DNA of 16,519 nucleotides, from the IMG/VR virus record IMGVR_UViG_2579778660_000005. One strand, given 5' to 3'. The translations under genes and the position numbers were made by a program. This DNA comes from a virus (taxonomy: Duplodnaviria; Heunggongvirae; Uroviricota; Caudoviricetes). Of the stretch, positions 3,307 through 11,673 are shown piece after piece; the first letter of the stretch is position 1, and each line of letters begins with the position of its first letter. Under the pieces are notes generated by a model, which was given only the letters and a program-made list of their open reading frames with translations, did no database searches and was not told the origin of the DNA.

Positions 3307-3882
3307 CTACGGCAGTGCTGGCCATTCAATATCCTGTGCAGTTGACGTATCAACACGGTTCAGCAATACCCGATACTTTTTCCATGCTTCCAGCAACGAG
3401 ATTTCTTCCTCCGTTGCAATTTCCAGATCTGCAGCATCCTGAAGCGGCGCAATATGCTCACTGGCTACCTGCATCAGGTTGTTTTTTGTTTCTTCCGCCT
3501 CCCGGATCCGGAACAGTTTTTCTGCTTCCGTATCCTTCACCCAGGCTGTGCCGTTCCACTTCTGAAACTCCCCTTCCGGCGATAACCAGGTAACATTTTC
3601 CGGTAACGGACCGAGTTCAGAAATAAATAACGCGTCCCCTGATGCCACGTCATAAACTGTTTTACCCCGATGGTCTTCAACAAGATGCCACGATGCCTCA
3701 TCACTGTTGAAAACAGCCACGAAGCCTGCCGGAATATCTGGCGGTGCAATATCGGTACTGTTTGCTGGCAGACCTGTATGAGGCGGAATATATGCGTCAC
3801 CTTCACCAATAAATTCATTAGTTCCGGCCAGCAGATTATAAATTTTTATGGTCTGTGGTTGTTCACTCATTCTGAATGCCAT
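3307..3882 (-). CDS. tfaQ: Tail fibre assembly protein (Tfa)
   Basis: 191 aa recalled as lambdoid Tfa; start ATG overlaps the stop of the upstream tail-fibre ORF (TAATG arrangement). Confidence 0.85.
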
Positions 3883-4796
3883 TATGCAAGCCTCACAATA
3901 TAGTTAAATGCGATGTTTTTGACGGTGTTTTCCGCGTTACCAGCAGCGTTAACGGTGATGGTGTGTCCATGTGAACCAATCGCAACGGAGTGCGTATGAG
4001 CACCAATACCGACAGTATGTGCGTGAGCACCTGCAGATGCAGCTGTGCCGCTGACACTATGAGTGTGCGCTCCTGCAGCACTTGTATTCACACTGGCCGC
4101 AGACACTACCTTATGTACTGACCCATTTTGTGACCACTGGCTGATTGCTGATGCGCCTGTGACACTATGAGTATGGTTTCCGGCACTTGCGGCTGTACCG
4201 CTCACACTGTGCGTATGCGCCCCGGTGTTATTCGTGGATTTAGTGCCGTAATCAAACGACGATGTGGTTTTCGTCCCCAAATCCGTACTGGATGCGCTGG
4301 CGCTGTGGGTGTGCGATTTAATGCCGTCCTGTTCCTGAGACAATACGGCCCGACCACTGGCAGGTTTGCCCTTAATCGTCCAGCCACGCATATCAGGGAT
4401 CACGCCTGACGGATAAGCGGCTGCAAGTTTCGGGTAAGCAGATTTGTCAAAAGTCTGCCCCTGCATCAGGGCATAACCAGACGGAACGGTATCTGATGGC
4501 CACGGGATTGGTGCACCGACTGGATAAAACTCTGCAGGAGGATGAGCCGAGGTGTAAAGCTGCGCCCACGGCGACCAGTTTGCGTCGGTCGTATCCCGTC
4601 GTGAACGAATAAATGCCGGAGCATGAGCACCGCTTGTACCACTCCAGCCGATGAGTAACTCACCTTCGCCAACGGCTGTCATCCCTTTCAGGTGAATGAT
4701 ATTTCCATACGCTGTTGGATATCCGTTGTTATACACCTCGTATAACTCAAGACCTGCTGCCCCCTGCGTATTGTCTGTCAGCGCGGCTAACCGCAC
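3882..4796 (-). CDS. stfQ: Side tail fibre protein, C-terminal receptor-binding fragment (GTG start at a deletion junction; N-terminal part missing)
   Basis: 304 aa rich in Gly/Ser/Thr with repeated [15 protein letters not shown] His-x-His motifs typical of tail-fibre tips; starts with GTG at 4796 directly after an in-frame TGA and overlapping the stop of the L fragment. Confidence 0.65.
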
Positions 4797-5338
4797 TCAT
4801 CACCGCGATAGGTCCAGGTGCAGGTGTTGGCCAGCATGATACGTCCCGGAAAAACAGCGCCGTCCGTTTCCGTCGGTGTGGACAACACAAAGGAGGCACT
4901 GACCGCACTCAGTTCGCTGCACTGCTCGATGCGCCAGCGGCTGATCACCTCCTGCTCCGGATCGGCGTCGCTGTTTCCGTTGACGAAGTTCACCGCATCC
5001 AGAAAACGGGCGTAAACCTTACGCCTGACCACCGTTCCGCCGACCAGACTCTGCAGGTCTTCCGCCATCCCGGTGACCATGCCGTGCAGGTTAGAAACCG
5101 TCAGTGTCGGACGGGCAGCACTGCCCTTGCCGTTCAGTTCAAATCCCGTCCCCTGAATGGGGTATGCCTGATACTGCCGCCCCTGCCAGGTAACCGGCTC
5201 ACCTTTTTCGTTCTGCTCATTACAGAAAAAATAACGTTCACCACCGACCTCTGTCAGATCGATTTCCCAGAGCACCACCTGGGCTGACTGAGTGAGGCGT
5301 GTCGTCTCATGATGTGTTTCCTGTGGAATATCCTGCAG
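4787..5338 (-). pseudogene. Tail tip protein L fragment (lambda gpL homolog lacking its ATG and about 50 C-terminal residues)
   Basis: Residues QDIPQETHH...VVLWEIDLTEVGGERYFFCNEQNEKGEPVTWQGRQYQ...[12 protein letters not shown] match remembered lambda L nearly residue for residue; CTG at 5336..5338 replaces the initiator; stop follows ECG. Confidence 0.8.
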
Positions 5339-5831
5339 CGCCCCTAAATTGCCGCGGGCCAGTTCACCTATCAGAACGCCTATCTCCTGGCGGGCTGCTG
5401 CACTTTTCAGACCCAGCGAATGCGTGGCTTTTCCTGCCTGCTCCATTTTGCGGATATACACTTCTGCAGCACTGCTTACCCCCAGCTGGGCTGCCTTAGC
5501 ACGAAGCAACTCAGAAGATGAAAGATTCAGGCGGGTTGACATCACTGGCCGGAATGAGTTGTGCCGTTTCCTGTTCGAACTTAAGACGCTCACGTTCAGA
5601 CTGATACCAGGCTTTGCGCTCATGCGCGTCCATTTCGCCTTCTGCAACCGGCGGTGGTAATGCCAGAAATGCCGACACAATATCAACCACCCGATAAAGC
5701 TTGAGGTTGCTTTCATGCCCCCCTGCAACGGGTAGATTTTGCAGCCTTGCCGCAGCAGTCTGGCGATGTACACCTGACAGTGCCGCCAGTTGACTGATAT
5801 TCAGCGTCAGATTTTTTAACTCTCGATCCAT
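5339..5831 (-). pseudogene. nohQ: Terminase small subunit, Nu1-like (NohA family), frameshifted near 5535 and continuing in frame into the L fragment
   Basis: 106-aa frame (5511..5831) resembles the lambda Nu1 N-terminus; a second frame open from about 5542 carries Nu1-like C-terminal similarity and runs without stop into L. Confidence 0.55.
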
Positions 5832-6002
5832 ACCCGCTCCAGAATGTTTTAAACATGCATCTTGCGAACAACTTTAGGCAAACGGTGTTAGTGATGAACA
5901 AAAAACAATCAAAATCGACACCATAAAAATAAAACCACTGTAATATCAATCTATTACAGTGGTGGTGATGACGAATGAAATTTCAAAAACTAGCCTTTTT
6001 CC

Positions 6003-6022
6003 GCGACGCTCCCGCCCCGTGG
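6003..6022 (-). other. cos-like site (cosN remnant)
   Basis: Minus-strand CACGGGGCGGGAGCGTCGCGGAAAAAGG resembles remembered lambda cosN ACGGGGCGGCGACCTCGCGGGTTTTCG; lies about 180 bp upstream of the Nu1-like start, as in lambda. Confidence 0.35.
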
Positions 6023-6383
6023 CAGGCCACCCCACCGGGAGGACCCGACAGCCTGACAACCGTGACGAGCATCTGAAACAGAGCTTTACATAATGGCATG
6101 GGGATAATTCAGAAGGACATCACAGCATGCCCACACAAATTAGTGTGAGTGTCCTGTTTCTTACTACGCGCAGGACTGACGAGCATGAGGGGAAAATACG
6201 AGAACCGAAATGCCTTATCTTCAGAAATGCAGCCAGCATCCGAACTGGACGATATTGTAAATTCACCTAAATACGAGGCATTGCTGTAGTTGAATTACAG
6301 TACTGTATTAGCCTGACAGTGACAGAATACGATATTGACTCTGTCACTTGTGAAATGGTCAGAATGGTTAGCAGTTATGGTGA

Positions 6384-6590
6384 TCAATCAACCACCAGGG
6401 AATAATCCTTCGTATTCTTATCGTGCTTCACTAACGCTGCCTCAATTGCCCTGAATGCTTCCAGAGATACTTGATGTTCTATACATGCAATTATAACATC
6501 CGGGTAACTCATCGAAATGGTGCTATTAAGCATAGTTTTTACACGAACCTGCTCCTGGGAGGGGGCCTCAGTACATTGATCTTTATGCAT
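6384..6590 (-). CDS. Hypothetical small protein (possibly YnfO-like); start uncertain
   Basis: 68-aa ORF divergent from ydfO across a 290-bp intergenic region; no recognised motif. Confidence 0.35.
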
Positions 6591-6878: not shown

Positions 6879-7289
6879 ATGGATCAGGTAGTCATTTTTA
6901 AACAAATATTTGATAAAGTTCGAAACGATTTAAACTATCAATGGTTTTATTCTGAGCTAAAACGTCACAATGTCTCACATTACATTTACTATTTAGCTAC
7001 AGATAATGTTCATATTGTATTAAAAAATGATAATACAGTGTTATTAAAGGGCCTAAAAAACATTGTGTCTGTCAAATTTTCAAAGGATAGGCATCTTATA
7101 GAAACGACCTCTAATAAGCTGAAATCCAGTGAGATCACATTTCAGGAATACAGAAGAAACCTTGCTAAAGCAGGAGTTTTTCGGTGGGTTACAAATATCC
7201 ACGAACAAAAAAGATATTACTATACCTTTGATAATTCATTACTCTTTACTGAAAACATACAGAGCACATCACAAATATTTCCACACTAA
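6879..7289 (+). CDS. ydfO: YdfO-like protein (DUF1398)
   Basis: ORF track starts at a GTG (6849); ATG at 6879 is preceded by GGAAGG at 6866..6871 and gives 136 aa starting MDQVVIFKQ, matching remembered YdfO. Confidence 0.75.
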
Positions 7290-10454: not shown

Positions 10455-10952
10455 TATACCGTTGTTTTGGACGCTCAAACAGCGAATCAGATCAAATAAA
10501 ACGCACATTTGTTAACATTTACACAAAGTCTGCGTGGGATATTCTGAAAGAATATCCATAATGTGGAGAGAATCTATTGAAGTGCATGGTGCCGGGTGCC
10601 TCCCGGTGAATTCAGTACCAGCACCTGAATCCGCGATTATCCCATATACCTACTCGCTGATTGCCCCTCCGCACAGGGGGATTCACCATGCCAGTTTCTT
10701 TTAACAAACTCCCCGCAAACCAGAGAACAGTCAACCGCCTGAATTGTGAAGTATTTAAAAATTTCTCCCGCTAACTGATACCCGGCTAACAGTCTGGCGT
10801 TTTCTTTTTCAGCAACGGGAAAGCAACAACCACCACACCCGCCACCAGCACACCGTCAGCCAGCACTGACATTATCCGGCTGCTGCAATGCCATTCACAA
10901 AAACAGTAAGCAATCACTTTTTACCGTAACAGGTGATAATCCAGATATGTAT

Positions 10953-11416: not shown

Positions 11417-11493
11417 TGGCGCGCTGTACTGGATTCGAACCAGTGACCGATTGCTTAGAAGGCAATTGCTCTGTCCGGCTGAGCTAACAACGC
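11417..11493 (-). tRNA. argO: tRNA-Arg (anticodon UCU)
   Basis: 77-nt cloverleaf folded by hand: acceptor GCGUUGU/ACAGCGC, D-stem GCUC/GAGC, anticodon stem AUUGC/GCAAU with loop CUUCUAA, T-arm ACUGG-UUCGAAU-CCAGU, 3' CCA. Confidence 0.9.
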
Positions 11494-11597: not shown

Positions 11598-11673
11598 TGG
11601 TGGCCCTTGCTGGATTTGAACCAGCGACCTGGCGATTATGAGTCGCTCGCTCTCACCACTGAGCTAAAGGACC
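11598..11673 (-). tRNA. ileZ: tRNA with CAU anticodon (Ile2-like or Met)
   Basis: 76-nt cloverleaf: acceptor GGUCCUU/AAGGGCC, D-stem GCUC/GAGC, anticodon loop CUCAUAA, T-arm GCUGG-UUCAAAU-CCAGC, 3' CCA; one mismatch at the top of the anticodon stem. Confidence 0.8.

Follow-up and report, generated by a model that had tools for sequence, protein, structure and literature searches.

The window analysed here, a 16,519-nucleotide stretch of DNA from a virus of the class Caudoviricetes, carries a GC-rich block and a perfect inverted repeat upstream of a truncated terminase gene. An earlier note on this sequence likened the block to the cosN site of phage lambda and placed the palindrome where the terminase and IHF binding sites lie in lambda cosB. 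This raises two questions: whether the region is a cos site and, if so, whether the palindrome is the part of it that the terminase recognizes. Comparison with lambda and with related prophages makes it very probable that the interval 5890-6046, read on the minus strand, represents an entire cos site, belonging to a lambda-like prophage whose packaging type is that of Gifsy, mEp460 and cdtI. It is an ordinary cos site of a well-studied kind. As judged from the alignments, the conserved elements of its cosB are a predicted IHF core and three flanking R-like repeats, not the palindrome.

Both the cos feature and the terminase gene downstream from it are read on the minus strand. Between approximately 6050 and 5975, this strand can be aligned with the lambda right and left ends joined together, and the alignment delimits three elements (slashes denote predicted nick positions):

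6040..6046, minus strand: cosQ heptamer GGGTCCT (plus strand AGGACCC), the same as lambda cosQ, to which it aligns
6000..6022, minus strand: cosN region CCACG/GGGCGGGAGCGT/CGCGGA, from the alignment to lambda
5975..6005, minus strand: conserved block after cosN, CGCGGAAAAAGGCTAGTTTTTGAAATTTCAT, aligning with lambda bases 13-40 (CGCGGGTTTTCGCTATTTATGAAAATTT), where the I2 site of lambda lies

The predicted top-strand nick follows the cosQ heptamer after 22 nt (23 nt in lambda), and the heptamer was found in every related cos site recovered. This 7-bp element is highly conserved among lambda-like phages (PMC4669245). In the cosN region, positions 6003-6022 read CCACGGGGCGGGAGCGTCGC on the minus strand and align with lambda TTACGGGGCGGCGACCTCGC, 15 of the 20 bases matching the lambda sequence CGGGGCGGCGACCTCGCGGG. 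The predicted 12-nt 5′ cohesive end, GGGCGGGAGCGT, corresponds to 6017..6006 of the minus strand. Written with its flanks, the segment is ACG/GGGCGGGAGCGT/CGCGG here versus ACG/GGGCGGCGACCT/CGCGG in lambda, and the CG dinucleotides at both nick positions are kept as in lambda cosN. The cohesive end departs from that of lambda at positions 7, 8, 9 and 11. These positions lie in the right half, the one that varies naturally (PMC4669245); the left half is identical. The post-cosN block is homologous as well (GGCTAGTTTTTGAAATTT here, CGCTATTTATGAAAATTT in lambda).

A matching cosQ-cosN segment is present in the intact phages 569R4, phi458 (99.3% identical to the window over cos), PhiR47_1 and cdtI, the genome record of the latter (AB285204) starting exactly at the first G of GGGCGGGAGCGT, that is, at the predicted end. 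Variants of the segment occur in VT1-Sakai, 1720a-02, mEp213 and a Klebsiella phage. With 63 occurrences among 120 related left ends, GGGCGGGAGCGT is the commonest cohesive-end variant; the mEp213 end, GGGCGGCGCGCT, previously inferred in the literature (PMC12315714), was recovered among the same left ends. An exact 21-mer from the post-cosN block (CGCGGAAAAAGGCTAGTTTTT) is shared by at least 120 IMG/VR viral contigs. Phage N15, whose cosB is of a “simple” type, likewise has lambda-like cosQ and cosN sites and a 12-nt 5′ overhang (PMC4669245), whereas cosQ and cosN of Gifsy-2 are more diverged (GGTACTCC...CACG/GGTGGCTTCGGG). Neither the 12-mer of the cohesive end nor its complement was found in any paper within the coverage of a full-text literature search. 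By its alignment, the GC-rich block (6003..6022) that had been called cosN-like is a genuine lambda-type cosN with a cosQ upstream and with predicted nick positions; of the comparisons with known cos regions proposed as a check on that claim, the one with lambda bears it out.

The genes on either side of the site point in the same direction:

5537..5831, minus strand: 5′ remnant (approximately 98 codons) of a DUF1441-type small terminase gene, assigned from Pfam, PHROGs and collinearity
6384-6590, minus strand: 68-aa ORF upstream of cos, 78% identical to lambdap79 and without a Pfam family

The ATG of the terminase remnant, at 5831, falls at base 187 from the predicted left end (6017), close to the position of the Nu1 start in lambda (base 191) and in agreement with the distance of about 180 bp noted previously. 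On the other side, lambdap79 is the last ORF before the lambda right end, and the synteny around cos agrees with that of lambda.

The ORF that contains the remnant (5831..5511; 106 aa) runs out of the terminase gene past a deletion junction near 5537. The remnant matches Pfam DUF1441 (E=4e-23; profile positions 1-95 of 147) and phrog_141, “terminase small subunit” (E=6e-39). Its intact homologues are 164 aa long and are annotated as small terminase subunit (TerS); relatives in Gifsy-2 and Fels-1 belong to the same TerS family, with 47.5% and 40.5% identity in tblastn. In Pfam searches, neither the remnant nor the intact homologues matched the Phage_Nu1 profile, DUF1441 being the only family found, and in this the window differs from lambda. 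Nearly full-length cross-matches were obtained with PHROGs (8e-10 for the DUF1441 protein against phrog_57, the Nu1 family; 6e-8 for Nu1 against phrog_141). Direct comparison of the DUF1441 alignment with Nu1 by hhalign gave a weak match (probability 6.8% over 48 N-terminal residues), and a profile search of PDB sequences with the DUF1441 family returned no terminase or Nu1, only a weak helix-turn-helix regulator. These profile comparisons suggest that the DUF1441 TerS is only distantly related to Nu1. The gene described earlier as a Nu1-like terminase remnant is indeed a truncated terminase; the epithet “Nu1-like” suits it only in the sense of a remote analogy of function.

The organization of cosB was deduced from a comparison set assembled from 80 loci of GTDB genomes encoding DUF1441 relatives (38 with a recognisable cosQ-cosN), 120 IMG/VR contigs sharing the post-cosN 21-mer, and phage records. 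The combined set amounts to 120 distinct related cos left ends. They display a constant layout: cosN, the conserved post-cosN block, an element A (TCATCAYC), a TTGAT-containing core, a T-rich run, an inverted element B (TCGACAYC), an element C (TCAYCAYC) and the start codon. In the window, with bases counted from the left end, the sub-sites identified through this comparison, and the palindrome, are as follows:

5961..5974, minus strand: R3-like element TCGTCATCACCACC, with its core TCATCACC at bases 47-54
5944..5956, plus strand: exact match to the IHF core consensus TATCAATCTATTA (WATCAANNNNTTR), the putative I1 equivalent, at the palindrome centre
5925..5934, plus strand: A-tract AAAAATAAAA, evident from the sequence, 9 nt 5′ of the IHF core
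5915..5922, plus strand: R2-like element TCGACACC, bases 96-103, inverted relative to the R3-like and R1-like elements
5890..5897, minus strand: R1-like element TCATCACT, bases 121-128
5934..5963, no strand: perfect inverted repeat ACCACTGTAATA-N6-TATTACAGTGGT, the palindrome flagged in the earlier note

The IHF core is perfect in 71 of the 120 left ends and has one mismatch in a further 31, and in 99 of these 102 it starts at bases 62-64 from the nick; shuffled controls gave no perfect core and 13 with one mismatch. The core of the window aligns with lambda TAATGTTTTTATT, in the I1 interval, and shares with it orientation and relative place. An IHF-like core also separates the first two R repeats of Gifsy-2 (L213, 380-425), but there it reads AATCAATACATTT, has one mismatch and is oriented opposite to that of the window and lambda. 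A T-rich run at the position of the A-tract is kept in most subgroups, whether the palindrome is present or absent. In the lambda attP H′ site, a similar A-tract precedes the IHF core. The window contains two exact matches to the IHF consensus in all; the second, TATCAAATATTTG (6903-6915, minus strand), lies in or beside a ydfO-like ORF.

In lambda, 21, phi80 and Gifsy-1, cosB has the order R3-I1-R2-R1, with R2 inverted (PMC9026076, PMC4669245; for Gifsy-1, Feiss and colleagues, PMC9026076), and the lambda R3 repeat occupies bases 50-65 (PMC9026076). Taken together with the IHF core, the repeats of the window reproduce this arrangement, including the inversion of R2. A triple of 8-mers in direct, inverted and direct orientation, with 2-3 summed mismatches, was found in 72 of the 120 left ends versus 14 of 100 shuffled sequences, at fixed positions (about bases 47, 96 and 121). 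Its sequence co-varies by subgroup: TCATCACC / TCGACACC / TCATCACT in the group of the window, TCATCATC / TCGACATC / TCACCATC in the mEp213 group, AGGGACAC / ATGGACAC / AGGGACAG in Pantoea loci and GTCAGCACTGAA / TTCGACACTGAA / TTCGACACTGAA in Gifsy-2, where the middle one of the three R repeats (TTCGACACTGAA) is again inverted. Because TCATCACCACCAC contains internal repetition, the R3-like element can be placed in more than one register, and the search gave alternative triples. The simple repeat search returned no clean triple in the cdtI and PhiR47 subgroups. Compared with lambda, the repeats are unrelated in sequence (TCATCAC-type in the window, CGTTTCCTTTCT in lambda) and R1 lies closer to the end (base 121 versus approximately 155). 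The Gifsy-2 repeat, TCGACACTGAA, differs from that of the window as well. When variants of the TerS recognition helix were tabulated against the repeat sequences, only a loose correspondence emerged. In the cdtI-type group (L005 / L175), cosQ, cosN and the post-cosN block are almost exactly those of the window, cosB is different, and TerS is about 41% identical with HRDTVKKRL as recognition helix instead of HRQTAAARL; this pattern points to a mosaic joint just past the I2-like block. The R-repeat consensus of the window type, TC-R-W-CA-Y-C, in direct, inverted and direct orientation around a fixed IHF core, could help to sort the numerous E. coli and Salmonella prophages of this type by packaging specificity.

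By analogy with lambda, where bending by IHF docks a TerS dimer on R3 and R2 (PMC9026076, PMC4669245), the site would work as follows. IHF would bind the core at the palindrome centre and bend the DNA sharply, setting the R3-like and the inverted R2-like repeats face to face. A TerS dimer would bind these two repeats through its N-terminal helix-turn-helix domain, the R1-like repeat serving as an accessory site. The large subunit TerL, anchored in this way, would nick cosN some 47 bp away at the predicted positions, leaving the 12-nt overhang GGGCGGGAGCGT, and cosQ would act in packaging termination. On this view, the palindrome would be an inverted repeat specific to its lineage, superimposed on the IHF site and on the end of the R3-like element, rather than a primary terminase recognition element, and its own role is probably minor.

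The palindrome is nevertheless a real feature of the sequence. It had been described as two 11-nt arms with an 8-nt spacer; the repeat search makes the arms one pair longer, with 12 nt on each side (5934-5945 and 5952-5963), 100% complementary and separated by 6 nt. It is the longest perfect short-loop inverted repeat of the 16.5-kb window. Of 300 dinucleotide-preserving shuffles of the window, just 3 contained a perfect arm of at least 12 nt with a loop of at most 12 nt, a frequency too low for the palindrome to be put down to pure chance. The region in which it lies is, as the earlier note had it, the one where lambda cosB has its terminase and IHF sites: the repeat is located between the R3-like and R2-like elements, with the IHF core at its centre, and its cosN-proximal arm extends over the final 3 bases (5961-5963) of the R3-like element, which is 14 nt long. 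A promoter-like match within it (TTGATA-18-TATGGT) is at chance level, and no Rfam family matches the palindrome or the cos site. The arms contain CTGT...ACAG (5938-5959), with flanks that resemble LexA half-sites (the consensus among relatives is TACTGTAAT / ATTACAGTA), but the 14 nt between CTGT and ACAG do not fit a LexA (SOS) box, CTGT-N8-ACAG; by-eye inspection for CRP and Fis sites, and again for LexA, likewise found unfit spacings.

Could the palindrome itself be the binding site of a TerS dimer, as the earlier note implied? In favour of this are its location in cosB, the overlap of its cosN-proximal arm with the 3′ end of the R3-like repeat, the dimeric binding of lambda TerS (PMC9026076) and the occurrence in the arms of CACTGTAA, similar to the 3′ half (CACTGAA) of the Gifsy-2 R repeat TCGACACTGAA; in view of this resemblance, TerS might make some contact with the arms. 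The distribution of the repeat argues against more than that. It is kept only in the window's own subgroup, where it is usually imperfect, and relatives show every intermediate between 8-bp and 12-bp arms. The allele with the perfect form is in the minority: its exact 38-mer occurs in 81 of 5426 complete E. coli genomes, as opposed to 2174 genomes that have the cos region. In a sample of the subgroup (50 distinct sequences, 91% identical overall), pair 24:49 is most often T:G (29 of the 50 members), which is a mismatch at the DNA level. Phage phi458 has the perfect palindrome, yet 569R4, whose TerS is 100% identical to that of phi458 and 95% identical to the truncated copy in the window, has three mismatches in one arm. 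PhiR47_1 and L015 have cosQ-cosN as in the window and TerS proteins 86-88% identical (that of PhiR47_1 is 88% identical to the protein of 569R4), but no palindrome; the repeat is absent from sister groups that share cosQ-cosN and a homologous TerS, and from cdtI and mEp213, whose cosB repeats are different. In addition, the dyads are not concentric, that of the palindrome lying at about base 69 from the left end and that of the R3/R2 pair at about base 75, approximately 6 bp apart. As the perfect form is rare and the similar TerS proteins of 569R4 and PhiR47_1 go with mismatched or absent arms, the palindrome is unlikely to be the terminase recognition site, and we consider this reading improbable. 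The conservation in related prophages that the earlier note asked for thus holds within a narrow subgroup and breaks down in the sister groups; restricted as it is to the nearest relatives, and imperfect in most of these, the palindrome is not the conserved terminase-binding element.

A role at the RNA level would place the function in the late transcript. Transcribed in the minus-strand sense, as in late transcription, the palindrome forms a 12-bp hairpin followed by UUUAUUUUUA, with a folding energy of -21.7 kcal/mol (z = -5.2), and a terminator scan flags the 12-bp stem, with 4 GC pairs at its base and the tail TTTATTTTTA. Such a hairpin and U-tract might act as a rho-independent terminator or as a stabilising hairpin; a terminator here may keep read-through transcription out of the head genes in the lysogen while letting Q-modified polymerase pass. 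In the subgroup, 89.5% of the pair cells are paired, and pair 24:49 varies (as RNA, UG 29, UA 7, CG 6, AU 2); wobble cells compatible with sense and antisense pairing number 62 and 15, respectively. However, changes on both sides of a pair are seen in only 3 cells. With so few double changes and an overall identity of 91%, the conservation of pairing mostly reflects shared ancestry. Column shuffles reached the observed pairing in 1 of 500 trials, a control that is inflated by the relatedness of the sequences. The wobble excess stems from two columns, and the gap in stability between sense and antisense RNA is mostly compositional, shuffles reproducing -1.4 of the -2.3 kcal/mol; family-wide, the greater stability of the sense strand is also mostly a matter of base composition. 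The T-tract that follows the hairpin is the A-tract (5925..5934) seen on the minus strand; it is found in hairpin-free subgroups too and is accounted for by the IHF site. The terminator scan gave 2 sites versus 0.9 expected, which is not significant. A hairpin acting in the transcript therefore strikes us as a rather remote prospect.

Neither does the palindrome have to do anything. In quasi-palindrome correction, template switching yields paired changes on both arms without selection. An imperfect repeat around the AT-rich IHF site could have been perfected in this way and kept by descent in a young lineage. The minority status of the perfect form, the graded arm lengths among relatives, the both-arm paired changes and the sister subgroups without palindrome would all follow from such a history, which we regard as possible although far from assured. 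Two observations sit less comfortably with it: the pairing slightly exceeds the column-shuffle expectation, and non-homologous inverted repeats recur at the matching place in a few lineages, a hint of some advantage. In three other lineages of this cos family (L032, L033 and L046; Sodalis, Atlantibacter, mEp213-like group), strong inverted repeats unrelated in sequence lie over or beside the IHF core, at bases 55-96 from the cos left ends, with z between -3.2 and -5.4. These repeats would suit a late-transcript hairpin or terminator, or a cruciform-prone DNA structure tuning IHF-dependent terminase assembly, selected after independent origins in the window group, L032, L033 and L046. If this were true, cosB would gain a previously undescribed sub-element. 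On the other hand, strong hairpins (z below -3) occur in just 4 of 27 clusters, lambda not being among those 27, and L033 and L046 have no U-tract. No inverted repeat is found at the palindrome position in most other lineages, nor in lambda, whose I1 lacks one. An RNA or structural reading is possible but weak, and we hold selection for such an element to be unlikely. That the palindrome has no independent function is our default, not a demonstration, within the preferred reading of the region as a standard cos site whose sub-sites are the IHF core and the R-like repeats.

The prophage of the window could not use this cos site on its own. An intact E. coli prophage with 99.3% identity has, after cos, genes for TerS, a GpA-family TerL, a portal protein and a protease-capsid fusion; collinearity with it stops at window position 5537, base 295 of the 495-nt TerS gene. 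The window itself has a truncated TerS gene and its TerL gene is deleted. The E. coli lambdoid phages with a DUF1441 TerS (phi458, mEp460 / Ayreon, vB_EcoS-569R4, cdtI and mEp213) have complete terminase and head genes, unlike the window with its truncation at 5537. Past the junction the sequence resumes within tail genes:

4787-5773, minus strand: ORF of 328 aa for minor tail protein L (Pfam Phage_tail_L, residues 174-328), present in part
3882-4796, minus strand: tail-collar / tail-fibre ORF, downstream of the tail protein L ORF

A large internal deletion has thus removed the TerL, portal, capsid and tail-shaft genes. Because the prophage lacks the rest of the terminase, the head and the tail-shaft genes, we infer that its cos is a relic, usable only by a co-resident or infecting helper phage of matching specificity. 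An intact cos in a terminase-less prophage can be cut by a co-resident phage of this kind; in general, such cutting uses up terminase to no purpose or initiates the packaging of neighbouring chromosomal DNA (PMC4669245). Beyond this, the importance of the site is mainly one of annotation: the cos of a defective Qin-like prophage is placed and its sub-sites are assigned, and its TerS is attributed to the DUF1441 / Gifsy type rather than to the Nu1 type.

Elsewhere in the window, Rfam matches at gathering score identify an IS009 RNA (3341-3539, minus strand), the sRNA STnc100 (10530-10720, minus strand) and two tRNA genes (11420-11493 and 11601-11673, both minus strand) within the late-regulatory part of the prophage. 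Four tRNAs are found there in the 99%-identical intact relative, and the window is non-collinear with it between approximately 9231 and 11598.
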